Shown: positions 41,739 to 55,675 of the stretch, piece by piece
Layout of the letters: every line of letters starts with the position of its first letter
How positions within the stretch are numbered: position 1 is the first letter of the stretch
Origin: Sedimenticola thiotaurini
GTDB lineage: Bacteria > Pseudomonadota > Gammaproteobacteria > Chromatiales > Chromatiaceae
Length of the DNA: 64,000 nt
Direction: 5' to 3'
Assembly (NCBI GenBank): GCA_007713595.1
Contig: VMRY01000015.1
Location: 2,244-66,243 of the forward strand
Translations under genes and position numbers: made by a program
The notes under the pieces: model-generated
Databases searched by the model: none
The model's input: the letters and a program-made list of their open reading frames with translations, nothing else
What the model was told of the DNA's origin: nothing

Positions 41739-43673
41739 ATGGAGTTCAACACGAATAAAGAGCATGGTGGACTGGTCACATCTACCGTTCGAGGGAACAG
41801 AACCAGTGCAACCCCGGTAAATGATTGCATTGTTCAATCCTGGAAACGTTGTCTTGAGGATTATGATCTCGATCCTGAACGACGACCTGAACCGGTGGTG
41901 GTTGACAGATCGGAACTCAAAGAGCGCCAGGAAAAATCCTGCAGGCTGGTGGAGATCGCCCGCTCAGAGATGACCAATCTCTATCAGCAGGTGGCAGGTT
42001 CTGGGCACTCCATTCTGCTCACTGACAATGACGGTGTCGTACTCAATTATGTCGGTGATCCAATGTTCACCAATACCGCCGTCAAGACAGCACTGCAGAC
42101 GGGTGCGATCTGGAGTGAAAAGACCCAGGGCACCAACGGTATGGGTACCTGCCTAGTTGAGAAAAGGCCACTGATTATTCATCAGGATGAGCACTTCTTT
42201 TCAAAGAACACCCGGCTGACCTGCTCGGCTGCACCCATCTTCGATCCAACCGGTGAACTGGTGGCAGTCCTGGATGCCTCTGGTGAATCCAGACAAGCCC
42301 AACAACACACCATGGTGTTGGTCAACATGTCGGCACAGTTGATCGAGAACCGTCTGTTTCTCTGCAAGATGCGGGACAACTATATACTGCGTTTCCACAG
42401 TCGGCCGGAATTCATCAGCACGCTCGGTGAAGGGGTCATTGCCTTCAATGAAGAGGGACGCATTCAGGCCGCCAACCGTAGCGCCCTGTTCCAACTCGAC
42501 ATGAAAGATATTATAGGTCGCCCCTTCGAAGAGTTGTTTAGTCTTCGAACCAATCATGCACTTAGCAATGCACAGAATCAGGCGATGGTGCCCCTACCCG
42601 TGCGGGACGCCAATCAGGGCAGACGTTTCTATGCAAGCTTCCAACCGCCCAATCCAGACACGGGCGGTAAACGACCCATTGCCCGCTCGGCCCGTGCATT
42701 TGTCAAAGAGACGATCAGCGAAACACCCACTCTGGAAGATCTCGAATTTGGCGACAACCGCATGCGCCACAATATCGAGCGAGCAAAAAAGCTGCTGGAA
42801 CTGGATATCCCCTTTATCCTGCTGGGCGAAACCGGCTCGGGCAAAGATGTATTCGCCAATGCCGTACATAAGACCAGCAGCCGGGCAAATAAACCCTTTG
42901 TCGCGGTCAACTGCGCTTCACTACCTGAGACTCTGATCGAGAGCGAGCTATTCGGTTATCGCCCCGGCGCCTTTACCGGAGCCAGTAAGGAGGGCTCACG
43001 GGGAAAGATCGCCCAGGCCCATGGTGGCACCCTGTTCCTGGATGAGATCGGTGATATGCCGCTGCATCTGCAGGCGCGGCTGTTACGGGTACTGGAAGAG
43101 CGTGAAGTGATACCGCTGGGTAGTGAAACACCGATCAAGGTGGATATACGCCTGATCAGCGCCACCCATCAGAACCTTCAACTGCAGATCGAAGATGGCA
43201 GTTTCCGGGAGGATCTTTTCTACCGGCTGAATGGCATCAGCCTGCAGATGCCGCCGCTGCGTGACAGGGAAGACCGGCGCGCCCTGATCCAGCATATCAA
43301 GCAACTGGAGGCTGGAGGCGAAGACAAAGTCGTCATTGATGACGAGGCACTGGATGCCCTGGAGCATTACGAGTGGCCCGGCAACATGCGCCAGCTACGC
43401 AATATCATGCGCACCCTGATCGGCCTCTGCGACAATAACCGCATAACGGTCGATGATCTGCCCGAAGAGATTTTTAGCAACAGCAGCGAGCTGGGTGAAC
43501 CGAGACAGCGAGTCAGACCCAGTAACCCGTTGGATATCGCCGAACGTGACGCGATCATTCGTGAACTGGAGGCCGCCCACTGGAATGTCACTCGGGTTGC
43601 CACGAAATTGAACATCAGCCGCAACACTCTGTACCGCAAAATGAAACGGTACGATGTAAAACCCCCACGCTAG
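41739..43673 (+). CDS. GAF-domain sigma54-dependent activator (AcoR/AcxR-like, Fis HTH)
   Basis: SW.RC GAF start, GTNGMGT, GETGSGKD, ESELFGY, GAFTGA, FLDEIGDM and SRNTLYRKM. Confidence 0.95.
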   Translation: MEFNTNKEHGGLVTSTVRGNRTSATPVNDCIVQSWKRCLEDYDLDPERRPEPVVVDRSELKERQEKSCRLVEIARSEMTNLYQQVAGSGHSILLTDNDGVVLNYVGDPMFTNTAVKTALQTGAIWSEKTQGTNGMGTCLVEKRPLIIHQDEHFFSKNTRLTCSAAPIFDPTGELVAVLDASGESRQAQQHTMVLVNMSAQLIENRLFLCKMRDNYILRFHSRPEFISTLGEGVIAFNEEGRIQAANRSALFQLDMKDIIGRPFEELFSLRTNHALSNAQNQAMVPLPVRDANQGRRFYASFQPPNPDTGGKRPIARSARAFVKETISETPTLEDLEFGDNRMRHNIERAKKLLELDIPFILLGETGSGKDVFANAVHKTSSRANKPFVAVNCASLPETLIESELFGYRPGAFTGASKEGSRGKIAQAHGGTLFLDEIGDMPLHLQARLLRVLEEREVIPLGSETPIKVDIRLISATHQNLQLQIEDGSFREDLFYRLNGISLQMPPLRDREDRRALIQHIKQLEAGGEDKVVIDDEALDALEHYEWPGNMRQLRNIMRTLIGLCDNNRITVDDLPEEIFSNSSELGEPRQRVRPSNPLDIAERDAIIRELEAAHWNVTRVATKLNISRNTLYRKMKRYDVKPPR

Positions 43674-43709
43674 AGCGACAATACCCTTCACAGCTTAAAT
43701 CTGCATAGT

Positions 43710-43725
43710 TGGCCCGAGCCTTGCA
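43710..43725 (+). promoter_or_regulatory. sigma54 (-24/-12) promoter
   Basis: TGGCCCGAGCCTTGCA has exact GG-N10-GC spacing, 40 nt upstream of the operon start. Confidence 0.75.
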
Positions 43726-43765
43726 CTCAGCATAGGCAAAGAGCCAACTTGCAGGTTAACGAACT

Positions 43766-44266
43766 ATGAGCCGCTTTGCTGTACGGGTCCATCCTGGCGA
43801 ACTCCATTTCAACGCCGCACACTTCATCACCTTCAACCAGTGCTGCGAAAACATTCATGGCCACAACTTCCACCTAAAACTGGAGGCGCAAGGTAACAAC
43901 ACCCTAGATGGGTTCGTTATTGATTTTGTTCAGTTAAACAGGCTGGCTGCCGAGATCTGCAGTGAACTGCATGACGGCGTACTCATCCCAACCCAGAGCA
44001 AAGAGGTGACACTGACCGAACGTGACAATGACATGCTGGAGATCCGCAGTTATGACAAGTGTTTCATCCTCAGTCGCTCCAGCTGCATTCTGTTGCCGAT
44101 AGCCAACACCACAGCCGAGATGCTCGCTTACCACATCAGCAATCGACTGATTGAATCACTCCAGGCGCATCAGGGCTTGGGGAATCTAAAAACCCTGGAA
44201 ATCGCCGTGGAAGAGGCGGACCAGCAGTGGGGCATCTATCAGTGTGAACTATCCCATGACGGATAA
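43766..44266 (+). CDS. COG0720 (PTPS/QueD-fold) pterin synthase with the C-E-x2-H-G-H motif
   Basis: FNAAHF, CENIHGHNF, VIDF and NTTAE. Confidence 0.88.
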   Translation: MSRFAVRVHPGELHFNAAHFITFNQCCENIHGHNFHLKLEAQGNNTLDGFVIDFVQLNRLAAEICSELHDGVLIPTQSKEVTLTERDNDMLEIRSYDKCFILSRSSCILLPIANTTAEMLAYHISNRLIESLQAHQGLGNLKTLEIAVEEADQQWGIYQCELSHDG

Positions 44267-44807
44267 AATACGCACAGCCTGGGCTATTACCGGCTCGGGC
44301 CACTACCTGAAAGAGTGCCTGACACTGGCGGAGCAGCTCCCCGATGTTGATCTGTTCCTGAGCAAGGCGGCGGCCGAAGTGTTGCAGGTCTATGGCTTTC
44401 CCATAAAAGCATTGAAACAGCGGTTTAAGATCTTTCACGACAGTACCGCCAGCGCACCACCTGTCGGCCTGTTTTATGAAGGTATCTATGAGCAATTGAT
44501 CGTCGCACCCGCCACCTCCAACAGCGTAGCCAAAATGGTCTGTGGCATTTCTGACTCACTGGTCACCAATGTCTATGCCCAGGCAGGTAAGTGTCGCATC
44601 CCCAGTATTGTATTTGCCTGCGATGCAGCACCAGAGATGGAGACAGAAGCACCCGGCGGCACCGTCATGGTCTATCCCCGGCGCATTGATCTGGAAAACA
44701 CCCAACGCCTGATGGATTTTGAATACACCCAAGTAGTCACCTCACTTCAGTCACTCAAGGATGCCATTGGCATACCGGCCCTATGTCAGAACATCTCCTC
44801 TTTCTGA
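44244..44807 (+). CDS. AfpA/DmrB-like flavoprotein (dihydromethanopterin reductase candidate)
   Basis: AWAITGSGH and APATSNSVAKMVCGISDSLVTN flavoprotein motifs; H4MPT context. The true start may be ATG 44259. Confidence 0.85.
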   Translation: MNYPMTDKIRTAWAITGSGHYLKECLTLAEQLPDVDLFLSKAAAEVLQVYGFPIKALKQRFKIFHDSTASAPPVGLFYEGIYEQLIVAPATSNSVAKMVCGISDSLVTNVYAQAGKCRIPSIVFACDAAPEMETEAPGGTVMVYPRRIDLENTQRLMDFEYTQVVTSLQSLKDAIGIPALCQNISSF

Positions 44808-46177
44808 CCGGATCACTGGCCGAGACCAGCCTGAAACAGGTGCTGCATGAGATGGCACCAACCCCGGTGACCTGGGAAGTGCAGCCTCTGAAAATTAAAG
44901 TCGCCGCCCTGTTGACCGGTGAGATGATCAAACGACAGCTACCCCACACCGGCAACGCCGGGCGCGTAATAATCCCCGGCCGATGTTGTGGTGACCTGGA
45001 CGCACTAAGTGAACACTTTGGCGTCCCCTTTCAGCGCGGCCCGGAAGAGTTGCGTGATCTACCCGAATGGTTGGGGCAGGCTGGCAGGCCACCCGACCTG
45101 ACACAACACGATGTGCTGATTTTTGCAGAGATTGTCGATGCACCTAACCTGACATCCGAAGCCATCTGCCAACAGGCGGAACGCTTTCGACAGCAGGGCG
45201 CTGATGTGATTGATTTGGGTTGTCTGCCCGACCAGCCATTTCCCCACCTGGCCGAGAGCATGCGGTTACTCAAATCGCAAGGCTTCAAGGTCAGTGTTGA
45301 TTCACATCGAAGCGAAGAGCTTTTAACCGGCGGCAAAGCGGGTGCAGATTATCTGCTCAGCCTGACCGAAGAGACGCTGTGGATTGCAGACGAGGTCGAA
45401 TCAACCCCCATCATCATCCCAACCAGCTCTGGCGATCTGGCGAGCTTACAGCGATCCTGGGAGCAACTCACCGCCAAGGGACGTACCTGTTTTCTAGATC
45501 CTATCCTTGATCCGATCCATTTTGGTTTTACCGAATCTATCGTACGTTACCACCAAGCCCGTCAACGCCTGCCAGAGGCCATGATGATGATGGGCGTAGG
45601 CAACCTGACTGAGCTCACCGAAGCGGACACCAGCGGCATCAATGCCCTACTATTTGGCATCATCTCCGAACTGCATGTGGGTGCGGTACTGACCACGGCC
45701 GTCAGCCCCCACTGCCGATCCGCCATTCGTGAGGCGGATCTGTCACGGCGTATCATGTTTCGTGCACGGGCCGATCGCAGCCTGCCCAAACGGCTGCATG
45801 CTGGCCTGAGTAACCGTCACGCCCTTAACCCCTTCCCTTACACGCCAGCCGAGATAGAAACAGCGGCCGACCAGGTGAAGGACCGAAACTTCCGCATCCA
45901 GGTCAGCAAAGAGCATATTCACATCTACAACCGGGAAACCCTACTTCACGCGACCGACCCCTATGATCTGTTTCCCCATCTGGGCGTTGAAGAGAATGGC
46001 AGCCACGCCTTCTATCTTGGGGTGGAGCTGGCCCGCGCCGAGATTGCACTGCAACTGGGAAAGCGCTACACACAGGACCAACTGCTTGACTGGGGGGCCG
46101 CCTGCGCGCCCGTAGAAAAAGACCAGCTCACCTATGCCAAACCGGGCAGCACCAAGCAGCGCAAAAAAGTATCTTGA
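44783..46177 (+). CDS. Dihydropteroate synthase-like pterin-binding protein (Orf20)
   Basis: LFLTGSLAE start, GADVIDLGC, SVDS, DPILDPI and GVGNLTELTEAD. Confidence 0.88.
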   Translation: MSEHLLFLTGSLAETSLKQVLHEMAPTPVTWEVQPLKIKVAALLTGEMIKRQLPHTGNAGRVIIPGRCCGDLDALSEHFGVPFQRGPEELRDLPEWLGQAGRPPDLTQHDVLIFAEIVDAPNLTSEAICQQAERFRQQGADVIDLGCLPDQPFPHLAESMRLLKSQGFKVSVDSHRSEELLTGGKAGADYLLSLTEETLWIADEVESTPIIIPTSSGDLASLQRSWEQLTAKGRTCFLDPILDPIHFGFTESIVRYHQARQRLPEAMMMMGVGNLTELTEADTSGINALLFGIISELHVGAVLTTAVSPHCRSAIREADLSRRIMFRARADRSLPKRLHAGLSNRHALNPFPYTPAEIETAADQVKDRNFRIQVSKEHIHIYNRETLLHATDPYDLFPHLGVEENGSHAFYLGVELARAEIALQLGKRYTQDQLLDWGAACAPVEKDQLTYAKPGSTKQRKKVS

Positions 46178-47418
46178 AGTGGAGCCTATTAGGTTGGCCC
46201 AGCTCTTGCTCCCTTCAACCGATAATGAACACATACAATAGGCTGAATACTTTGGCGTCTGTTAGCTGCCCCTTCTGTGCCATGGTTTGTGACGATCTGT
46301 CACTGCCACTACACAATGAACAAACTATTCCTGGTCAGGGCACCTGCGAAAAAGCGGTTACCGGATTCACCCTTGCACTTGAGGCAACCCAGGCGATGCC
46401 GCTGTTAAAGGGTAAAGAGATCACCTGGACAGAGGCGCTGACCAAGGCCGGTGCCCTGTTAAGAGAGGCGAATCACCCCCTGATACATGGCCTGATCGGG
46501 GATCTTATCGACAGCAAGGCCGCACATAAACTGGCCGAGCATTTTGCAGGTACGGTTGATCACCGGCATGGTGATGCAATCGCCCGCAATCTACGCATCT
46601 ATCAGCAAGGGGGTTGGCAGGTCAGTAGTATGGGTGAAGTACGTAATCGGGCGGATCTGGTTATTTTGGTGTGTGACGACCTGGAAACCACCCTGCCCCG
46701 GCTGCAAGAAAAAGTATTGCACAGTGAAGCGCGGCTGCACACCTCTGCTCCACCAACCGTTTATACGCTAGATGAAAATCGACTTGAGACACTCTCGATC
46801 CTGCGCGCACGTCTGGCCAACAAGCCGTTGCAAACCGATACTTCGGCGACCGATGAACTGCTGTCGCTCATAAACAAAGCCGACTACCCCGTATTCATGA
46901 TCGGGCCACTACAAGATAAAGCGACCGAGCTGATCATACGCACCTGTGTGGGCCTGGTACGTGATATGAATGAGCAACAGCGTTGTGCGCTCCTGCTGCT
47001 CGGGACAGGTGAAGGCGACATCACTGCACAACTGAGCGGCGCCTGGCATAACGGTTTTGGCATCCGCACCAGCTTTACAAAAGGCTATCCGGTTCAGGAT
47101 CTACAGATGCATTCTGGAGATCGCTTGCTGCAGTCTGGGGAATCTGACCTGCTGGTCTGGATCAGCACCCTAAGTAGCGATCCACCACCTAACGTAACCC
47201 AGCCGACTATCGTTATCGGACATCCTGCCATGACCTTCAAAACTGACCCGCCCGAGCTATTCTTGCCTGTCAGTATTCCCGGCATTCATCGTGCCGGTTA
47301 TCTGCATCGTGCCGATGGTCTGCGCATGGTACCGCTCAATGCCTTGATAGAGAGTCCACTCTCAAGCAGTGCTGCACTCTGTGAGCAGTTGATCGCACAG
47401 GAGCCACGCCCATGTTGA
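46174..47418 (+). CDS. fhcB: Formyltransferase/hydrolase complex subunit B (FwdB homologue)
   Basis: CPFCAMVCDDL, GEVRNRADLV and RADGLRMVPL. The true start may be ATG 46225. Confidence 0.88.
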   Translation: MKWSLLGWPSSCSLQPIMNTYNRLNTLASVSCPFCAMVCDDLSLPLHNEQTIPGQGTCEKAVTGFTLALEATQAMPLLKGKEITWTEALTKAGALLREANHPLIHGLIGDLIDSKAAHKLAEHFAGTVDHRHGDAIARNLRIYQQGGWQVSSMGEVRNRADLVILVCDDLETTLPRLQEKVLHSEARLHTSAPPTVYTLDENRLETLSILRARLANKPLQTDTSATDELLSLINKADYPVFMIGPLQDKATELIIRTCVGLVRDMNEQQRCALLLLGTGEGDITAQLSGAWHNGFGIRTSFTKGYPVQDLQMHSGDRLLQSGESDLLVWISTLSSDPPPNVTQPTIVIGHPAMTFKTDPPELFLPVSIPGIHRAGYLHRADGLRMVPLNALIESPLSSSAALCEQLIAQEPRPC

Positions 47419-49046
47419 CTCGACTCAAAGGCGCACGCCTCTATGATCCGGTGAATCAGATTAACGGCGAGGTTGGTGATGTGTGGATTCGGGATAACCT
47501 GATCTGCGCCGCACCGGATAACCCTGCAGAAGCAGACAAGACCATTAACCTCGAAGGCAAGATATTAATGGCGGGGGCGATTGACATCCACAGTCATATC
47601 GCGGGCGGTAATGTGAACAGTGCCCGTGTTTTACTGCCAGAACAGCATCTGGCAGAACAGGCCCGCTACCCTCAGCACCCGTTTTCATCAGCCAAGTGGT
47701 CAGCTGCTGATACGGGCTATCGCTATGCCGAGATGGGATTTACCACCGTGGTAGAGCCTGCCGTGTTACCTATCAACGCGGCTCAGGTCCATGCCGAGCT
47801 GGCTGATATACCGATTATTGATACCGCTGGCCTGGCCATTGTCGGTAATGATGATTTTCTCCTGCGGATGCTGCGGTATAAGGCAGAGCAGGCACGCATC
47901 AATGACTATATCGCCTGGACCTTACACGCCACCCAATGCCTGGGAGTGAAGGTCATCAATGCCGGTGGGGCCACGGCATTCAAGTTTAATCAGCGCCAGC
48001 TCAATCTGGATGATGAAGTTCCGATGTACGGCATGAGCTCGCGGGACATTCTAACTGCCGTACAACGTGCCGTGGTGCAATTGGGCATTGCCCACCCGGT
48101 ACACGTTCACTGCAATAACCTGGGTATACCGGGCAATGTCTCTACCGCGCTGGAGACCATCAAGGCGGCGGAGGGTATGCCCATGCATCTCGCGCATGTG
48201 CAGTTCTATGGCTATGGTGACCAAGGCGATAGTGGCTTTTCATCTGGAGCCAAGGCCCTGGCTGACGCCGTTATGGCCAACCCAAATATTACGGTCGATG
48301 TTGGCCAAGTGCTATTTGGTCAAACCGTCACCATCTCCGGCGATGTGATGCGTCAATTTGATGCCCGACATATCGCCAACCCGAAAAAGTGGGTGGTATG
48401 GGAAGGTGAGGATGGCGGCGGCGGTATTGTGCCGTTCCAGTATCGTCCGAAAAACCAAGTCAATGCCCTGCAATGGGCTATCGGTCTGGAACTGTTCCTG
48501 CTGATCGATGATCCATGGCGCATCTTCTTCACCACCGATCACCCCAATGGTGCACCGTTCACTGCTTACCCGGAGCTGTTCAGGTTACTGATGGACCGCG
48601 ACTACAGAAACCTGTGGCTGGATAAGATCAACGCAAAATCGGCTGATATATCCCTGTTACGTCATCTGGATCGGGAGTATGACTTGTATGAGATCGCCAT
48701 CATGACTCGCGCTGCTCCGGCCAAGCTCCTGGGGCTGAGTGACCGGGGACATCTCTCTGTTGGTGCCATTGCTGACATTGCCGTTTACCAACCACAAGAT
48801 AATAAAGCAGCCCTATTTGGCAAAGCCGAACTGGTATTGAAAGATGGCGTTACGGTAGTTGAAAAAGGTCAGGTGGTTCACTCACTACAGGGTAAGACCC
48901 ATGCGGTTGCCCCTGGTTTCGATAGTGCTATTGAATCAGCAGTAAGCAGGTATTTTGACCGTTATCACCTGATGAAAATGGACCACTACAAACTTAGTCC
49001 ACAACATCTCCTTGAAACAGTAGGCAGTGAACTGGTACTGCACTGA
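47412..49046 (+). CDS. fhcA: Formyltransferase/hydrolase complex subunit A (FwdA-like amidohydrolase)
   Basis: GAIDIHSHIAGG, GVKVINAGG, HVHCNNLG, TTDHPNG and TRAAPAK.LG. Confidence 0.96.
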   Translation: MLTRLKGARLYDPVNQINGEVGDVWIRDNLICAAPDNPAEADKTINLEGKILMAGAIDIHSHIAGGNVNSARVLLPEQHLAEQARYPQHPFSSAKWSAADTGYRYAEMGFTTVVEPAVLPINAAQVHAELADIPIIDTAGLAIVGNDDFLLRMLRYKAEQARINDYIAWTLHATQCLGVKVINAGGATAFKFNQRQLNLDDEVPMYGMSSRDILTAVQRAVVQLGIAHPVHVHCNNLGIPGNVSTALETIKAAEGMPMHLAHVQFYGYGDQGDSGFSSGAKALADAVMANPNITVDVGQVLFGQTVTISGDVMRQFDARHIANPKKWVVWEGEDGGGGIVPFQYRPKNQVNALQWAIGLELFLLIDDPWRIFFTTDHPNGAPFTAYPELFRLLMDRDYRNLWLDKINAKSADISLLRHLDREYDLYEIAIMTRAAPAKLLGLSDRGHLSVGAIADIAVYQPQDNKAALFGKAELVLKDGVTVVEKGQVVHSLQGKTHAVAPGFDSAIESAVSRYFDRYHLMKMDHYKLSPQHLLETVGSELVLH

Positions 49047-49053
49047 GGCGCTT

Positions 49054-49626
49054 ATGAGTGAACGCATTCATGAAGTTATCGTGATTACCCACAACCATGA
49101 TGGCTCACCCCACATGGCACCCATGGGTATTCGTCAGCGCAACAAAAACTGGCTGATCGCCCCATTTCGCCCGTCACGCACACTGGAAAACCTGCTGCGA
49201 GAGGGTGTAGCCACTCTCAATACCACAGACGATATGCGTATCTATGCAGGCTGTCTGACAAAACACTATGACTGGCCATTGGTTGAATGTGAGAAAATAA
49301 ACGGCCATCGATTGAAAGATGCACTCAGTCATAAAGAGATCCAAGTAGAGCAGGTAATAGAAGACACGCAACGACCACAACTGCTATGCAAGGAGATCCA
49401 TCAAGTGAATCACCGCCCTTTCAGTGGTTATAACCGGGCGCAGGCCGCCGTACTGGAGTTGGCCATACTGGTAAGCAGACTGCATCTACTCACCGAAGAA
49501 AAACTGAACAGTGAGATCAACTACCTGCAGATCGCAATAGAGAAAACGGCGGGAAGAAGTGAACGAGAGGCATGGAATTGGCTAATGCAATCGGTAGATG
49601 ACTATCGTAAGAGGAATTGCGCATGA
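49054..49626 (+). CDS. DUF447 family protein (Orf19-like)
   Basis: PHMAPMGI, PFRPSRTLENL, NRAQAAVLELAI..SR and IEKTAG. Confidence 0.88.
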   Translation: MSERIHEVIVITHNHDGSPHMAPMGIRQRNKNWLIAPFRPSRTLENLLREGVATLNTTDDMRIYAGCLTKHYDWPLVECEKINGHRLKDALSHKEIQVEQVIEDTQRPQLLCKEIHQVNHRPFSGYNRAQAAVLELAILVSRLHLLTEEKLNSEINYLQIAIEKTAGRSEREAWNWLMQSVDDYRKRNCA

Positions 49627-50339
49627 CCGGTCTGCTTGCCAGCATCTGCTCTGTGGAAGAGGCGGACATTGCACTGCACTCCTATGTCGATATTATTGAC
49701 TGCAAGGATCCGACGCGTGGTGCCTTGGGTGCCCTTGACCTGGACCTGATCGCATCCATAGTTGATTTAGTTAATGGCGAACGTCCGGTCAGCGCCACCA
49801 TTGGTGATCTACCGGCCGATCCAAAACGGATACGGCATGCCGTCAGAAATACAGCAGACTGTGGCGTTGATTACATCAAGCTCGGTCTGTTTGAAGAGAC
49901 AACTGCCGCGCCATGCATAATGGCAATGAAAGAAGAGTGTAAACATAATCAGCTTATTGCTGTCTGTTTTGCCGATCTGTTTGATCCCATGCCCCTGCTC
50001 CCACTGCTTTCCACACAAGGTTTTCATGGCGTAATGATCGACACGGCAGAAAAAAAGAGTGGTCGACTGACTGATCTCTGGAGCCTGACCCACCTTGCAC
50101 GCTTTATCGATCAAGCTCAACTGCTCGGCTTAGTCTGTGGATTGGCTGGTCGCCTCACACTCGACGCCATCCCCTCCCTGCTACCCTTGCAGGCCGACTA
50201 CCTGGGATTTCGCAGCGCCCTGTGCGTCAGTGATCGCACAAGCCAACTCGATCATCGGGCCGTTATGCGTGCGCGTAACGCCATGCCTTTTGGTTTTGAT
50301 GTACCGACCATCAACACGGCATTTGTGGCTGTACATTGA
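49623..50339 (+). CDS. mfnB: 4-HFC-P synthase MfnB (DUF556)
   Basis: LLASI.SVEEA, IIDCKDP..GALGA, YIKLGL, GVMIDTAEK and GFRSALC. Confidence 0.92.
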   Translation: MTGLLASICSVEEADIALHSYVDIIDCKDPTRGALGALDLDLIASIVDLVNGERPVSATIGDLPADPKRIRHAVRNTADCGVDYIKLGLFEETTAAPCIMAMKEECKHNQLIAVCFADLFDPMPLLPLLSTQGFHGVMIDTAEKKSGRLTDLWSLTHLARFIDQAQLLGLVCGLAGRLTLDAIPSLLPLQADYLGFRSALCVSDRTSQLDHRAVMRARNAMPFGFDVPTINTAFVAVH

Positions 50340-50704
50340 TGGCGCTCTGCCCTGAAATTTTTCGTCAACGCGCCATAATCGAAGGACTCTACGGCATTAA
50401 CGAGATAAATGAACAGACGGTGTCACAGGTTCTCCAGGTCATGACCAAGACACTCGGGATGACGCCCATCGCTGATCTGCTTATTTTCTCACCCGATCAT
50501 GTCAGTGAATTACATCATGGTATTGGTGGCTTCCAGGCCTGGGCAGAATCCGGCTGTTCACTCTATACCTGGCGTGAGCAAAAACTGTTTACTCTGGAAC
50601 TCTATTCATGCAAACCGTTCCAAGTCAGCGACTGCATTCTCAAGCTGCAACAACTTCTCAAGGTGGAACGTGTTGAGTGGCGTAACATTCCCTCTGACTC
50701 ATAA
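50336..50704 (+). CDS. Divergent AdoMet-decarboxylase-fold (pyruvoyl-type) protein
   Basis: GIGGFQAWAESGCSLYTW...ELYSC aligns without gaps to the class 1b SpeD core GVSGVVVISESHLTIHTW...DLFTC. Confidence 0.75.
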   Translation: MMALCPEIFRQRAIIEGLYGINEINEQTVSQVLQVMTKTLGMTPIADLLIFSPDHVSELHHGIGGFQAWAESGCSLYTWREQKLFTLELYSCKPFQVSDCILKLQQLLKVERVEWRNIPSDS

Positions 50705-50756
50705 AAGTTATTACCCAAGTAGTCAGCACCGAGACAGTATTGGTTAGAAAGTCACC

Positions 50757-50915
50757 GCAGGCTGGGCTGAACAGAGTGAAGCCCAACAATGCAAAATCCA
50801 TAAAGGGATGCCGGAGCGTGACCGAAGACGTTGGGCTTCGCTGCACTTAGCCCTACCTACTTTTGGCATTGGTTAAAAATCCCCGTAGGTTGGGCTGAAC
50901 AGCGTGAAGCCCAAC
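50757..50915. repeat. Cluster of three GTAG-type REP elements (+,-,+)
   Basis: G(C/T)AGG(C/T)TGGGCTGAACAG(A/C)GTGAAGCCCAAC at 50757 and 50885; inverted copy at 50830-50860. Confidence 0.85.
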
Positions 50916-51030
50916 AATCATCTTACTGTGATGCCATGGCTGAATAGGCCGTGTAACCTGAAAAAAATGGACCGCAAAGTAAACTAAGCGGTCCCAAGCG
51001 GAGGCAAATCGAAAAAACAAATCACTGTAG

Positions 51031-51573
51031 CTAAATTATGAGTGACGGCCATTCATGAATCGCGTCACGTTGAACCAATTTCACCTCACCACCCCACCCT
51101 TGTCGATATTCCTCAAAGGCGGCATCCAATAACTCTGAACTCGATGTGGTAAGAGTTACCGACTTCACGAGCAGTACACCTTCTGCATCAACTTGCTTCG
51201 CCAACCAGAGCGCCAGGCTATCTGAAGTGACCCGCCAACTCTGTTCAACATCAGGGTCTTCTTCGACTGGCAACCAGACAACACTACGCCCGGACTCAAC
51301 CTGCTTTATCAGTTCTGGAATTTTAGACGCTCTCGACAACTGGGGTTCGATACCGGTCATGAGTAACCCAAATTGATTCATGGCACAGAGCGCCATCTGA
51401 TGTGCAGTTCCATCATCCACACCCCAGCGTTGCTGGGCGACACGCACCTGATCAGCAAATGGACCACCACCAGGCACAATAATAACGGGCACACCTGACG
51501 CTGCAATTTTGTTCAGCCACATTTTAAGCTGTGGCGCGTCATACAGGCTGCCGCCGATCTTAACTACCCACAT
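51031..51573 (-). CDS. Amino-acid-kinase family MfnE-like kinase (Orf21-like)
   Basis: VVKIGGSL, VPGGGPFADQVR, TSDSLA and LLVKS. Confidence 0.88.
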   Translation of the reverse strand: MWVVKIGGSLYDAPQLKMWLNKIAASGVPVIIVPGGGPFADQVRVAQQRWGVDDGTAHQMALCAMNQFGLLMTGIEPQLSRASKIPELIKQVESGRSVVWLPVEEDPDVEQSWRVTSDSLALWLAKQVDAEGVLLVKSVTLTTSSSELLDAAFEEYRQGWGGEVKLVQRDAIHEWPSLII

Positions 51574-52945
51574 GAGACAGCCGCCCCTGACTCAACAACC
51601 GCAATAGCGCCGAGGCCTTATCAAACGTCTCCTGATATTCGGCATCAACCTCAGAATCATGCACGATGCCACCGCCCGCCCAGCAGCGAATTTTACCCTG
51701 ATTGTAGACCAGCGTACGTATGGTGATGTTACTGTCCATCTGTCCATCAAAACTGATGTAACCGATGGAACCACAATAGAGCCCCCGACGATCCGGTTCC
51801 AGTTCAGCAATGACCTCCATGGCACGAATCTTAGGCGCCCCGGTAATCGATCCTCCGGGGAAACAGGCCCGCAGCAGCCCCACCCCATCCTGATCACCCT
51901 TCAATTCACCGGTAACCGTACTAACCAGATGATGTACGGTGGCATAACTCTCTACTGCAAACAGTTCAGGCACCTTCACTGTTCCGGGTGAGCAGACCCG
52001 ACCCAGATCATTACGCAACAGATCCACAATCATCAGATTTTCCGCCCGGTCCTTGACACTCATTGACAGCTCTTTTGCCATTGCAGAGTCACCCTCCGGC
52101 GAATCCCCACGGGGACGAGTTCCCTTTATCGGTTTGGTCTCCACCTGCCGATTTTGCAGCTTTAAAAAACGCTCCGGAGATGAACTGAGTATTTCCGCAT
52201 AGGGTGTTTTGAGATAGGCAGAGAACGGTGCCGGATTCATTTCGCGCAGATCTTGGTAGGCAGTCCATCCATCCCCTTCCGCAGAGGCAGAGAAACGCTG
52301 TGCAAAGTTTACCTGATAGCAATCACCCTCTCTTATATACGTTTTTATACACTCAAACGCAGTCGCATAGGTCGCACGATCCATATTCGTTTGGATCGGG
52401 CCGGTAATCTGAAAAGTTCTATTTTTAGCGGTTTTAGAAGACGTACAGAAAAGTCGTAGCAGTGACCACCAGCGCTGGCGTGTCTGCGGATCACGGCCGT
52501 CGCCAACCAGCCAGCTACGTTGTTGCTCATGATCAACCACAACCGCCCAATCATAGAGACCGATCGCCATGTCGGGGAGTTGCTCACGACTCTTTAGCGA
52601 CTCCGGCAGTTTTTCAATACGCCAGGCAAGGTCATAGGAAAACCAGCCAATCGCTCCACCACAAAAGGGCAAATCACTCTGTTGCTTAAGCGCTGGCCCT
52701 AGCATTTCACGTAGAATGGTAAACGGATCATCCGGACGTAGTGTTATGCAATCACCTTGACGAATCTCGGTAATATTATCCCGAGTCGTCAACGTCAGAT
52801 AAGGGTCTGCTGCCAGGATGTCATAACGCCCAACATCGGTATGGGGATAGCCACTATCAAGAAAAACCGCCCAGGGTCTTTCCGCAATACGGGAAAATAG
52901 CAGACGGCTTTCTGCCCGGTAGGGGATTTCAACTCTCAGGCACAT
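51560..52945 (-). CDS. pabB: Aminodeoxychorismate synthase component I
   Basis: GDCYQVN, SSPERF, TKPIKGTRPR, AENLMIVDLLRND and FPGGSITGAPK. Confidence 0.95.
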   Translation of the reverse strand: MCLRVEIPYRAESRLLFSRIAERPWAVFLDSGYPHTDVGRYDILAADPYLTLTTRDNITEIRQGDCITLRPDDPFTILREMLGPALKQQSDLPFCGGAIGWFSYDLAWRIEKLPESLKSREQLPDMAIGLYDWAVVVDHEQQRSWLVGDGRDPQTRQRWWSLLRLFCTSSKTAKNRTFQITGPIQTNMDRATYATAFECIKTYIREGDCYQVNFAQRFSASAEGDGWTAYQDLREMNPAPFSAYLKTPYAEILSSSPERFLKLQNRQVETKPIKGTRPRGDSPEGDSAMAKELSMSVKDRAENLMIVDLLRNDLGRVCSPGTVKVPELFAVESYATVHHLVSTVTGELKGDQDGVGLLRACFPGGSITGAPKIRAMEVIAELEPDRRGLYCGSIGYISFDGQMDSNITIRTLVYNQGKIRCWAGGGIVHDSEVDAEYQETFDKASALLRLLSQGRLSHVGS

Positions 52946-54024
52946 GCTCGATGGGGCTCTCTAGTTAACCTTAGTAGTGCAACCGCCGGCGCACAATCGG
53001 CGGCCAGACTGGAATTTTCGTCACCTTGCGAAAGGAGTTCACCTATATCCAGATAGACACGCCCCAGCCGTATGGCTACACGCTCCACCAGAAACCGGCC
53101 AACCCCAGCGCCGATTAATACAGCTGAATCAGACAAGCCCAAACTGAGCTGACGCTGACACGCCAGTGACAGGGCATCAATCTGTCTATCAGCAAAAAAA
53201 GCAGCTAAACGATGCCAATCGGCCTCTGACCCATCAGACAGATCCGCTCCGATCATACGGGAGAGTCGTCGCCTGCTTGCAGATGTGGTTTTCTCTTTCC
53301 CGTCAGCAGCAGGGTAAAGATCGGCCGCTTCCGGTAGATCACCCAGTACCCTATAAACATCCGCTGTCGTGGCAAACAGCTCATTGGCCAGTGTTAACCA
53401 CTCCCCTTTAAAGGGTACCCGATCTGCGATGGCCATTAGGGGTGTGCGTACCACACCGGCATAGATCATTTCATCATGCGCCAATCGCTGACGATCAGTG
53501 AATCCCTTATTGAGTAGACACTGTTTTTTAAAGGGTAAAAGATCACTGGTGGTCGTTCCGACATCCATCATCACGCCCGAAGATACCACCGATGCCGCAT
53601 AGCGGGTTGTTGCCAGCCAGTTGGCTGAGGCAATCTGCTCCGTGAATTCGCCCGCCTTTGCAAAAGGAATGAAACCTTCAACACCGGCATAAAAATAGAG
53701 CGACTGCCGTGGTAATCGCTGCTTAAGCCAGTCAATCAGTTCAAGCACACCTGAGCGGCGATCATCGAACAGATCAACCAGTTCTGCCGTCATGGTGATG
53801 CGATGTTCACAATCATGAAGTGGAAGTCGCCGCGAAAGATCCTGCAATGCCTGGCCCAGTGATTCCAGGCCTTGCCATAGCGGTGTTGGCATTATCTCTA
53901 CCGCTTTTATTCGGCCGCACTGATCCTGCCAGGCCACTTTCAGGTGAGCACCACCAATGTCCCAGCCAATCACCCCCTGTTCAGGCAACACGACCCAACT
54001 CCAGATCGACATGAACACACTCAC
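52936..54024 (-). CDS. MfnF-like ASKHA/hydantoinase-family H4MPT-linked protein (Orf9-like)
   Basis: GWDIGGAHLK, TMTAEL.D, SANW, DVGTTTSD and E.FATTADVY. The start may lie a few codons downstream. Confidence 0.88.
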   Translation of the reverse strand: MSVFMSIWSWVVLPEQGVIGWDIGGAHLKVAWQDQCGRIKAVEIMPTPLWQGLESLGQALQDLSRRLPLHDCEHRITMTAELVDLFDDRRSGVLELIDWLKQRLPRQSLYFYAGVEGFIPFAKAGEFTEQIASANWLATTRYAASVVSSGVMMDVGTTTSDLLPFKKQCLLNKGFTDRQRLAHDEMIYAGVVRTPLMAIADRVPFKGEWLTLANELFATTADVYRVLGDLPEAADLYPAADGKEKTTSASRRRLSRMIGADLSDGSEADWHRLAAFFADRQIDALSLACQRQLSLGLSDSAVLIGAGVGRFLVERVAIRLGRVYLDIGELLSQGDENSSLAADCAPAVALLRLTREPHRACA

Positions 54025-54979
54025 CGGTAATTAATCCCGCCGGGCGTTCATTCGGATACTCTGCCAAACGCATCATCATCGCCGCCAGATTCCTCCCGGT
54101 AGATTGACTTAATCCTACATAGGCCGTGGTTAAGCGTGGATTCACTTCAAGTACAACAGGCCCCTGTTCAGTCAATATCAGATCCACGCCTACATAACCC
54201 CAGAGACCGGGGATCGCCTGACAAATACCCTGGGCCAGTTCCAGCAGTTCGGTCTGGTGACTTTTAAGGCCATTGACCACACATCCCAGCAGACAAAAAC
54301 CATCATTCATCTGCACAACACGTTGAATATTGGTACCCACCATGCAGACACAATTCGCACCCACCATCATCGACATACTGATCGACTGACCAGCCAGATA
54401 GGGTTGCACCACCCATTTAAGGGTAGATTCGCGACTCCCTACATAATCCAACAAGGCCTCTTCATTCGGAACAATATGGATATCCTGACAACCAACACCT
54501 TCATCTGGCTTGACTACCAGTGGTTGATCATCAAATTGAGGATGGGAGCCAACACGCCAGGTCGGTATGACAGAGACACCTTGCAGTGCCAGGCAATCCA
54601 CCGTTGCCTTTTTACTTGAGGCAATTGCCACCGCCTCGGCACTACTATTAAGTAACAATTTGCCAGCGGCCTCTACCGAACGACACAATGACTCCAGCAC
54701 ACCATCGGTTTCAGGTGCAATCGGCAGTACCGCATCCACCTCATCCAGACAGGTGAGCCAGGCACCCCACCAATCCGTTTCGACCCAGTGAATGTTTGCA
54801 GGCAGCGGTAACGAATCCAACCGGAGATCCCGACAGACCAATACATCGATTGATTCAAGTTGAGTCAGATCACGAACAATGGCATTAAGCATCATGTCGC
54901 CCTCCGCCATCAGACTTGGTATGATCTCTTTATCCACACAACCACCACCGGTTATGTATTCAAAAACAAAGACCCGCAT
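53981..54979 (-). CDS. MfnD-like ATP-grasp ligase (OrfY; tyramine/tyrosine-glutamate ligase family)
   Basis: MRVFVFEYITGGG, IAPETDG, VVKPDEGVGC, GYVGVD and EVNPRLTT; AAGGAG RBS. Confidence 0.88.
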   Translation of the reverse strand: MRVFVFEYITGGGCVDKEIIPSLMAEGDMMLNAIVRDLTQLESIDVLVCRDLRLDSLPLPANIHWVETDWWGAWLTCLDEVDAVLPIAPETDGVLESLCRSVEAAGKLLLNSSAEAVAIASSKKATVDCLALQGVSVIPTWRVGSHPQFDDQPLVVKPDEGVGCQDIHIVPNEEALLDYVGSRESTLKWVVQPYLAGQSISMSMMVGANCVCMVGTNIQRVVQMNDGFCLLGCVVNGLKSHQTELLELAQGICQAIPGLWGYVGVDLILTEQGPVVLEVNPRLTTAYVGLSQSTGRNLAAMMMRLAEYPNERPAGLITGECVHVDLELGRVA

Positions 54980-54988
54980 ACGAACTCC

Positions 54989-55675
54989 TTGAATATCATC
55001 CCTGTCATTGATCTGTTAGACGGCCAGTCGGTCCACGCCAAACTCGGACGGCGAACTGAGTACCGGCCACTGAACTCACCTTTGTGCCAACAGGGTGAAG
55101 TTCTTCCACTGATACAAAGACTCTGTGATGACTTCGGCATGCAGCAACTCTACATTGCCGACCTGAATGCCATACAGGGCAAGGGTGATAACCACTTGAC
55201 CCTGCACCGCATTGCTCACAGCTTTCCTGACCTGACACTATGGATTGATGCCGGCTTCGCCACACCTGATGCCATTCAGACATTACAATCCTCTGTTACA
55301 TGTCGCCCGGTCATCGGTTCCGAGAGTTGGCAATACACCAAACCCTTTGCAAATGACCAGGCTATAATACTCTCTGTTGACTCTGTTGATGGCGTGCTGC
55401 GTGATCTTTCCGGTATCACAACCGATACCAGACGACGCCCGAATACATTAATCCTGATGAATCTCGCCCGCGTTGGCTCACAACGGGGCCCAGATATCGA
55501 TCTGCTTTCACTCTGGAGCAAAACCGCACCTGGCGCCGAACTGTACATGGCAGGCGGCGTACGCCATTGTGATGATCTGTTAACCCTGCAGGCAGCCGGT
55601 GCCAGCGGTGTTTTACTCGCCAGTGCAATACACAGTGGTGCCTTGACTGCTACTGATCTCACTGCATTCAGTTGA
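54989..55675 (+). CDS. HisA/HisF-related TIM-barrel protein of H4MPT clusters
   Basis: NIIPVIDLLDGQSVHA, LYIADLNAI, WIDAG, VIGSES and GGVR; TTG start inferred from homologue-like length. Confidence 0.82.
   Translation: MNIIPVIDLLDGQSVHAKLGRRTEYRPLNSPLCQQGEVLPLIQRLCDDFGMQQLYIADLNAIQGKGDNHLTLHRIAHSFPDLTLWIDAGFATPDAIQTLQSSVTCRPVIGSESWQYTKPFANDQAIILSVDSVDGVLRDLSGITTDTRRRPNTLILMNLARVGSQRGPDIDLLSLWSKTAPGAELYMAGGVRHCDDLLTLQAAGASGVLLASAIHSGALTATDLTAFS

Follow-up and report, generated by a model that had tools for sequence, protein, structure and literature searches.

Which enzyme makes the tyramine of methylofuran in organisms that lack the tyrosine decarboxylase MfnA? Methanofuran (MFR) and methylofuran (MYFR) carry formyl groups in methanogenesis and in bacterial formaldehyde oxidation. 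Tyramine-type MYFR is the commoner form and half of its producers are without MfnA; Hemmann et al. (2021, PMC8141765) postulate unknown tyrosine decarboxylases and list the missing enzyme as an open question. The locus considered here lies in a stretch of 64,000 nucleotides from Sedimenticola thiotaurini (assembly GCA_007713595.1, contig VMRY01000015.1, positions 2,244 to 66,243), called the window below, and consists of a short open reading frame (ORF) that follows mfnB and encodes a protein related to SpeD, the S-adenosylmethionine decarboxylase (AdoMetDC) of bacteria. A preliminary description of the window had stated that many MYFRs contain tyramine, which is correct according to the same paper, as is the lack of MfnA in some producers, and had proposed this SpeD-like gene as a source of the tyramine. 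Comparative analysis indicates that the gene very probably works in MFR/MYFR biosynthesis and that its product is most likely a neofunctionalised class 1b AdoMetDC-fold enzyme of that pathway. The more specific reading, that the protein is a pyruvoyl tyrosine decarboxylase replacing MfnA, we hold to be somewhat better than an even bet (probability about 0.55). A search of 8.4 million papers and preprints found nothing that ties methanofuran or methylofuran to a pyruvoyl or SpeD-type decarboxylase.

Fold and active-site residues of the SpeD-like protein

The gene, its upstream neighbour and the codons discussed below are as follows.

50339..50704, plus strand: SpeD-like (AdoMetDC-fold) ORF, 121 aa plus stop, with an alternative TTG start at 50336
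49617..50339, plus strand: mfnB ((5-formylfuran-3-yl)methyl phosphate synthase, Orf22), PF04476 match of 223.8 bits
50513..50515, plus strand: codon of His59, a clade-specific invariant His in an F-S-P...H-x-G loop
50546..50551, plus strand: codons of Glu70-Ser71 (gaa tcc), the predicted self-cleavage site, with Ser71 as predicted pyruvoyl precursor
50564..50566, plus strand: codon of Tyr76, at the position of the catalytic His68 of T. maritima AdoMetDC; invariant in both domains
50609..50611, plus strand: codon of Cys91, equivalent to Cys83, the AdoMetDC proton donor; invariant

The ORF list of the window contains the frame 50336..50704 on the plus strand, for which a product of 122 aa had been described. 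The frame exists, but translation of the orthologues begins at a site corresponding to ATG 50339 (M-A/T-L/I-C-P-E-I, that is MALCPEI or MTICPEI), so that the likely product has 121 aa; the numbering used here follows this start. The TGA stop of mfnB (50337-50339) shares its A with this ATG, giving TGATG and a one-base overlap, and the SpeD-like ORF closes the plus-strand operon because the next gene, mfnE-like (51031-51573), is convergent. The overlap and the final position in the operon thus agree with the earlier account.

The AdoMetDC fold, also part of that account, was recovered in three ways. Pfam AdoMet_dc (PF02675) matched with 36.9 bits against a gathering cut-off of 25, and an AlphaFold2 model built from 18 homologues had a predicted local distance difference test score (pLDDT) of 89.9 and a predicted template modelling score (pTM) of 0.84. 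All five significant Protein Data Bank matches found with Foldseek were class 1b AdoMetDC (template modelling score, TM, 0.68-0.77 at 18-20% identity), and the structures matched include those of T. maritima (1tmi/1vr7/1tlu, TM about 0.75) and Aquifex (2iii). In a HMMER alignment with 1TLU, E62-S63 corresponds to E70-S71 and C83 to C91, and S55, H64 and H68 correspond to G63, G72 and Y76, which are exactly the kept and changed residues named in the preliminary description. E70-S71 lies in a turn between model strands 63-68 and 71-78, like in the template.

Members of the clade to which the protein belongs (described below) are 36-88% identical across bacteria and archaea, and 18 columns are invariant between Gammaproteobacteria and Bathyarchaeia, including S71, C91, Y76 and H59. 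Glu70 occurs in 15 of the 16 sequences from both domains, the remaining one being an archaeal member with Gly-Ser. This member (Bathyarchaeia G013, L039:1483-1848) lies away from mfnB and has radical-SAM neighbours. The ratio dN/dS was 0.06-0.13 in comparison with three Sedimenticola orthologues, which means purifying selection and hence a working protein. The invariant His59 could serve as a substitute base; its loop (residues 51-60) has a lower model confidence (pLDDT 68).

The substitutions raise the alternative that the protein is a dead, non-cleaving member of the AdoMetDC fold, kept in the pathway as a scaffold or as a subunit that binds substrate or regulates a partner such as MfnB or Fhc. 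H68Y, S55G and H64G set it apart from all active homologues that have been characterised. T. maritima AdoMetDC cannot do without S63, H68 and C83, and conservation of these three residues is expected in all AdoMetDC, arginine decarboxylase and ornithine decarboxylase homologues, a V. vadensis domain without the critical residues does not cleave, and inactive SpeD-derived domains and prozymes exist (PMC10407285); the T. brucei prozyme is among the fold matches, and translational coupling to mfnB would suit a subunit of MfnB. The caveat in the preliminary description, that the substitutions could mean a lack of self-cleavage, stands and is sharpened by the invariant Tyr at the essential His68 position. 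We nevertheless regard a dead protein as quite unlikely. Ser71 and Cys91 have a use in pyruvoyl chemistry only and are invariant over the full range of identities, and Glu70 is nearly so; such invariance would be without reason in a dead protein and softens the objection raised by His68. Tyr at the His68 position is moreover typical of the broad subfamily of 883 clusters described below, which suggests a different catalytic solution and not decay.

Linkage to methylofuran and methanofuran genes in two domains

The genes of the window that matter for the comparison with other genomes, besides mfnB, are these.

49027..49626, plus strand: DUF447 gene (Pfam DUF447_N/C), constantly 5' of mfnB in the synteny block
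51031-51573, minus strand: mfnE-like kinase (MfnE NCBIfam/Pfam, 72 bits), in the convergent operon
52936-54024, minus strand: mfnF-like gene (TIGR03123, 321 bits, above cut-off), in the convergent operon
53981-54979, minus strand: mfnD-like ATP-grasp gene (MfnD_Meth, 98 bits), in the convergent operon
54860..55675, plus strand: HisA/HisF-family gene, Orf17 homologue (PF00977, TIGR00734)

A scan with one genome per species gave 16 loci from 15 genomes. The order DUF447, mfnB, SpeD-like was found in 13 gammaproteobacterial loci, 12 of them from the scan and one (G285) from a sample of the class. Of the 15 genomes that yielded the scan loci, 14 have mfnB, the exception being an incomplete metagenome-assembled genome (MAG) with a gene fragment only; for all carrier genomes examined the figure is 21 of 22. 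The class sample, drawn blind, comprised 400 Gammaproteobacteria in the GTDB sense, including Burkholderiales, and 55 of them were mfnB-positive. Three of these 55 carry a member of the clade, and in all three it lies directly 3' of mfnB.

Similar linkage was observed in archaea. One Bathyarchaeota contig holds mfnE, mfnB and the SpeD-like gene together, and in three Bathyarchaeia (G012, G476 and G587) the SpeD-like gene is divergent from mfnB. In three others (G448, G416 and G424) it comes first in an operon, followed by genes for a HisA/HisF-family protein (TIGR00734) and for MfnD-like (143 bits), MfnF-like (TIGR03123, 335 bits, above cut-off) and MfnE-like (157 bits) proteins, and mfnB abuts this operon. 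M. extorquens cannot make MYFR without Orf17, which belongs to PF00977 (PMC8141765). With its homologue inside the archaeal operons (L048:2510-3235, L049:5406-6128 and L050:5238-5963), all genes of these operons are known or suspected cofactor genes, and a role of Orf17 in the cofactor core appears conserved between bacteria and archaea. The archaeal gene thus often heads an mfnD-F-E operon away from mfnB, which does not suit a dead subunit of MfnB. Co-occurrence and linkage with MYFR genes had been among the checks named in the preliminary description; both were found, in two domains.

The window encodes, besides the MfnD-like ligase, MyfA- and MyfB-like ATP-grasp proteins, a combination reported mainly from tyramine-type strains (Hemmann et al. 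2021, PMC8141765). Sedimenticola thiotaurini would on this evidence be expected to make tyramine-type MYFR.

The place of mfnA

Archaeal methanofuran always contains tyramine (PMC8141765), so that archaea with the pathway need a tyrosine decarboxylase. Of 301 genomes sampled from the class of the Bathyarchaeota hit, 61 were mfnB-positive; together with the carrier G013 this gave 62 genomes, which were searched for both proteins by means of the clade profile and the MfnA model (TIGR03812). A clade member was present in 8 of the 62 (127-149 bits), and MfnA was found above the curated cut-off in 29 and split in one more. The mfnA gene occurred in 1 of 8 carriers compared with 29 of 54 non-carriers (Fisher p=0.054), G476 being the sole genome with both genes.

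Gene positions are more telling than these counts. In 19 Bathyarchaeia genomes mfnA (444-509 bits) lies immediately 3' of mfnB on the same strand, and no clade genome of either lineage combines this usual mfnB-mfnA pair with a SpeD-like gene at that locus. The SpeD-like gene occupies the place next to mfnB in genomes without mfnA; in taking the position of mfnA it behaves unlike a dead accessory protein.

Two MfnA-less Bathyarchaeia (G663 and G474) have a different SpeD, of canonical type, directly 5' of mfnB. This second SpeD (L052:675-1013 and L053:3194-3532, both minus strand) has 112 aa, contains DKSHISIHTF...FSCK and keeps His64, His68 and Cys83; it scores 43-50 bits against the AdoMetDC cut-off of 75.65 and is very distant from the clade in the tree. 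When these two genomes are counted with the carriers, the figures for mfnA become 1 of 10 and 29 of 52 (p=0.013), although G663 and G474 are closely related and effectively represent one lineage. The second SpeD beside mfnB lends weak support to the view that the AdoMetDC fold can fill the role of MfnA, and the fold may here have been recruited to this step a second time, independently.

The absence of MfnA noted in the preliminary description was confirmed: none is encoded in the window, and no protein of the source genome reaches the MfnA cut-off. The same holds for all 15 scan-locus genomes, 10 of which have no match at E<=1e-10, and for the 55 mfnB-positive Gammaproteobacteria. Since no sampled genome reaches the cut-off, the exclusion test is powerless in Gammaproteobacteria. 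The source genome has two PF00282 genes, one for PanP (900 bits) and one for a 498-aa group II pyridoxal phosphate (PLP) decarboxylase (G000:C139, L055:6430-7926, minus strand). The latter scores 203 bits against a cut-off of 900 with the diaminobutyrate (DABA) decarboxylase model and 112 against 299 with MfnA, occurs only in Sedimenticola among the 15 SpeD-like genomes, and has uninformative neighbours (nei, an exonuclease, an EamA transporter and a U32 peptidase).

Relation to AdoMetDC and polyamine synthesis

The simplest alternative is that the gene encodes an ordinary divergent AdoMetDC for polyamine synthesis and lies next to mfnB by chance. Databases do annotate it as S-adenosylmethionine decarboxylase, a genuine speE occurs in seven carrier Gammaproteobacteria, in which the clade profile revealed no second AdoMetDC, and the source genome encodes a weak aminopropyltransferase-like protein. 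This last protein matches PRK04457 with 140 bits against a cut-off of 304 and reads GLGAGS where, we presume, the GGGDG motif of aminopropyltransferases would stand.

The other evidence makes a plain AdoMetDC very improbable. The AdoMetDC equivalog model TIGR03330 gave 28.5 bits against a cut-off of 75.65, archaeal clade members reached 25-33 bits, and His68 is lost. The source genome is 99.98% complete and the SpeD-like ORF is its sole PF02675 gene. No spermidine synthase is encoded in the window, as had been noted, and none that is genuine elsewhere in the genome, where the best match to the speE model TIGR00417 had 28.9 bits against a cut-off of 249.55. A SpeE near the cut-off was missing from 13 of 21 clade genomes: four Sedimenticola (the source genome and three others), two Ca. 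Thiodiazotropha and seven Bathyarchaeia, six of them without genuine SpeE and one (G587) with a 90-bit partial speE match only. In the three speE-bearing carriers inspected (G010, G005 and G009), speE pairs with a speA-like gene elsewhere and not with the SpeD-like gene. One archaeal carrier (G012) has a second SpeD match of canonical type elsewhere in its genome, and the mfn linkage in two domains, with mfnB in nearly all carriers, is not what chance adjacency predicts. The sub-cut-off equivalog score, the sole PF02675 gene and the lack of genuine SpeE led us to reject a plain AdoMetDC as the leading explanation.

Distribution and wider subfamily

A word-indexed search returned only 58 close relatives (Sedimenticola, Ca. 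Thiodiazotropha and Chromatiaceae). When 1.84 billion representatives were searched exhaustively with a profile, 883 clusters matched at E<=1e-3, of which a mere handful group with the query; the remainder form a broad subfamily with an N-terminal RQRLxIEG motif, a W-x-[ED]SG-x3-Y-x-W...Y-x-C-K motif and mostly Tyr at the His68 position. The clade itself comprises Sedimenticola, Thiodiazotropha, MAGs of Chromatiales and Thiotrichales, and Bathyarchaeia. In a maximum-likelihood tree the mfn-linked bacterial and archaeal proteins formed one clade (support 97/94), within which the Gammaproteobacteria were monophyletic (98/93).

The sister clade, named 'DSG', is large: its 1771 proteins come from Steroidobacteraceae, Woeseiaceae and Burkholderiales MAGs. 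No mfn neighbours were seen in the two sister-clade contexts examined (L056:5147-5503 and L057:6001-6357); the neighbours were NAD synthase and SMR in one and a CPBP protease and PPDK in the other, the gene in the former standing after NAD synthase and a 108-aa ORF and before the SMR transporter. The mfn linkage is thus specific to the SpeD-like clade, and the idea that the whole subfamily with Tyr for His68 is mfn-linked was rejected on these two contexts. Some members of the broad subfamily carry a SET-domain or GNAT-like module fused to their C-terminus (SET in P0099, P0107, P0112, P0115 and P0119; also P0131 and P0144). These fusions suggest that an amino acid is decarboxylated and the resulting amine then methylated or acylated.

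Proposed reaction and its weighing

A pyruvoyl tyrosine decarboxylase would work as follows. The proenzyme would cleave itself between Glu70 and Ser71 into a beta chain of 7.78 kDa and an alpha chain of 6.06 kDa with an N-terminal pyruvoyl group. The pyruvoyl group would form a Schiff base with the alpha-amine of L-tyrosine, CO2 would leave and Cys91 would protonate the intermediate to give tyramine. The MfnD-like ATP-grasp ligase would then link tyramine with glutamate, and the MfnF-like enzyme would attach this product to the furan unit that MfnB and MfnE supply. The earlier suggestion that the gene supplies tyramine or performs another decarboxylation for the cofactor is in this way backed by comparative genomics.

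To our knowledge, the sole decarboxylation in the core synthesis of MFR and MYFR is that of tyrosine to tyramine. The pyruvoyl mechanism requires a free alpha-amine, which excludes N-glutamylated intermediates as substrate; late-stage MYFR is excluded as well, a Schiff base being impossible with N-acylated tyrosine. A pathway decarboxylase that acts on another substrate with a free alpha-amine, either the tyrosine-furan ether (the tyrosine form of MYFR-Glu0) before glutamate addition or aspartate, seems unlikely to us. All the mfn linkage evidence fits such an enzyme equally well. Tyrosine or tyramine might join F1-PP first, with glutamylation later, and tyramine might have another precursor (PMC8141765). 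The archaeal SpeD-like gene, on the other hand, directly precedes orf17 and the MfnD-like ligase gene, an order that fits the supply of free tyramine. As to aspartate, MfnA of M. jannaschii makes beta-alanine as well, but the source genome already has PanP for that product.

Several points weigh against a pyruvoyl tyrosine decarboxylase. With an invariant Tyr for His68 and with Ser55 and His64 lost, self-cleavage is a prediction only, and one archaeal member replaces Glu-Ser by Gly-Ser at the predicted site. We know of no pyruvoyl tyrosine decarboxylase, and substrate specificity is not readable from sequence. The seven carriers with a genuine speE leave room for a polyamine function, the mfnA anti-correlation is borderline in a set of incomplete MAGs, with both genes in G476, and the 498-aa PLP decarboxylase is a candidate alternative source of tyramine in Sedimenticola. 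Finally, about 22 of the 55 mfnB-positive Gammaproteobacteria have neither a SpeD-like gene nor an MfnA-family match (E<=1e-10), among them G360 of the same family. These genomes may make tyrosine-type MYFR or use another enzyme. G360 has the block of DHPS-like, DUF447 and mfnB genes (L037, G360:C22:16000-30000) without either gene, so that the SpeD-like gene is dispensable or replaced even among close relatives.

A bolder form of the proposal can be put forward tentatively, at somewhat less than even odds: the protein would be the first pyruvoyl-dependent decarboxylase of an aromatic amino acid (tyrosine), would form its cofactor by way of Tyr76 and/or His59, would have displaced MfnA and been exchanged together with mfn genes between Bathyarchaeia and sulfur-oxidising Gammaproteobacteria, and would provide the first predicted function in the subfamily with Tyr for His68. 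The substrates of the AdoMetDC fold would then extend past AdoMet, arginine and ornithine, and pyruvoyl formation would be possible without a His thought essential. For Sedimenticolaceae, Chromatiales, Thiotrichales and Bathyarchaeia at least, the SpeD-like gene is a concrete candidate for one of the postulated tyrosine decarboxylases. It does not extend, as the preliminary description might have led one to expect, to MfnA-less tyramine-MYFR bacteria in general; with 3 of 55 mfnB-positive genomes the clade is too narrow, and it is too rare in the sampled Gammaproteobacteria to account generally for the strains that Hemmann et al. found to lack MfnA. Under the current, mistaken AdoMetDC label, symbiont and sediment genomes are wrongly credited with spermidine synthesis, and metabolic reconstructions of Bathyarchaeia seem to have a gap in the methanofuran pathway.

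Other features of the island

41739..43673, plus strand: sigma-54 activator (GAF-PAS-AAA-HTH_8, by Pfam) heading the island
46174-47418, plus strand: fhcB-like gene, placed where FhcB would be; no Pfam match
47412-49046, plus strand: fhcA, Amidohydro_3 match, 544-aa protein; conserved synteny
50763-50790 and 50891-50918, plus strand: two copies of a 28-nt REP-like hairpin, an exact or near-exact repeat
51560-52945, minus strand: pabB, in the convergent operon 51031..54979

According to Pfam and NCBIfam the remainder of the window is a complete tetrahydromethanopterin (H4MPT)/methylofuran island. The plus-strand operon runs in the order PTPS, AfpA-like, DHPS-like, fhcB-like, fhcA, DUF447, mfnB and SpeD-like ORF, and the island also holds fae, CitG-like, RimK-like (MyfB-type), mch, a second ATP-grasp_3 (MyfA-type), mtdB and GHMP kinase genes. 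FhcA and FhcB are formyltransferase/hydrolase subunits that use MYFR. The fhcB-like ORF encodes 414 aa, keeps 41-68% identity in all syntenic loci and has no Pfam match at E<=1e-5.

In Ca. Thiodiazotropha the SpeD-like gene lies away from mfnB, directly 3' of an orthologue of the sigma-54 activator (70% identical; L011:3887-6354), and this pair is followed by modABC. The arrangement hints that the activator might control the cofactor genes.

The hairpin repeat, TGGGCTGAACAGNGTGAAGCCCAACAAT, fills part of the 326-bp gap between the convergent operons, with 0 copies expected by chance, and may serve as a bidirectional terminator or mRNA stabiliser. Scans for consensus promoters and terminators over 43000-51200 gave nothing above the shuffled expectation.

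Comparison with known systems

The closest known proteins are the class 1b AdoMetDC (SpeD/SpeH; 1TLU/1VR7/1TMI and 2III), with which the SpeD-like protein shares fold, size, the Glu-Ser turn and the equivalent of Cys83. It differs from them by Tyr for His68, by Gly for Ser55 and His64, and by the clade-specific F-S-P...H-x-G loop and an N-terminal R-x-R...E-G motif. Most carriers are without the SpeE partner, and the gene is set in mfn clusters and not among polyamine genes.

Repurposing of the AdoMetDC fold for the decarboxylation of arginine and ornithine, cited as established in the preliminary description, is correctly stated (Li et al. 2023, PMC10407285). The SpeDA arginine and SpeDC ornithine decarboxylases of that paper, which mentions neither methanofuran nor tyrosine, and a crenarchaeal SpeD-derived arginine decarboxylase illustrate the principle proposed here, a pyruvoyl enzyme of this fold re-targeted to an amino acid, and SpeDA and SpeDC resemble our case also in a gene context unlike that of canonical speD. 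They keep S63, H68 and C83, whereas the SpeD-like clade keeps the Ser and the Cys and has Tyr for the His. They serve polyamine synthesis, whereas DUF447, mfnB and mfnE as neighbours point to a cofactor pathway, and the predicted aromatic substrate is without precedent for the AdoMetDC fold.

MfnA (PLP L-tyrosine decarboxylase, TIGR03812, PF00282) is the counterpart in function. It has about 390 aa, PLP fold type I and an external cofactor, whereas the SpeD-like protein has 121 aa, the AdoMetDC fold and a presumed protein-derived pyruvoyl group; with different folds and no homology, the likeness is one of functional analogy only. The two nevertheless share the predicted reaction, the pathway step and the genomic neighbours, and the place of mfnA 3' of mfnB in the 19 Bathyarchaeia is the place that the SpeD-like gene has in Gammaproteobacteria.

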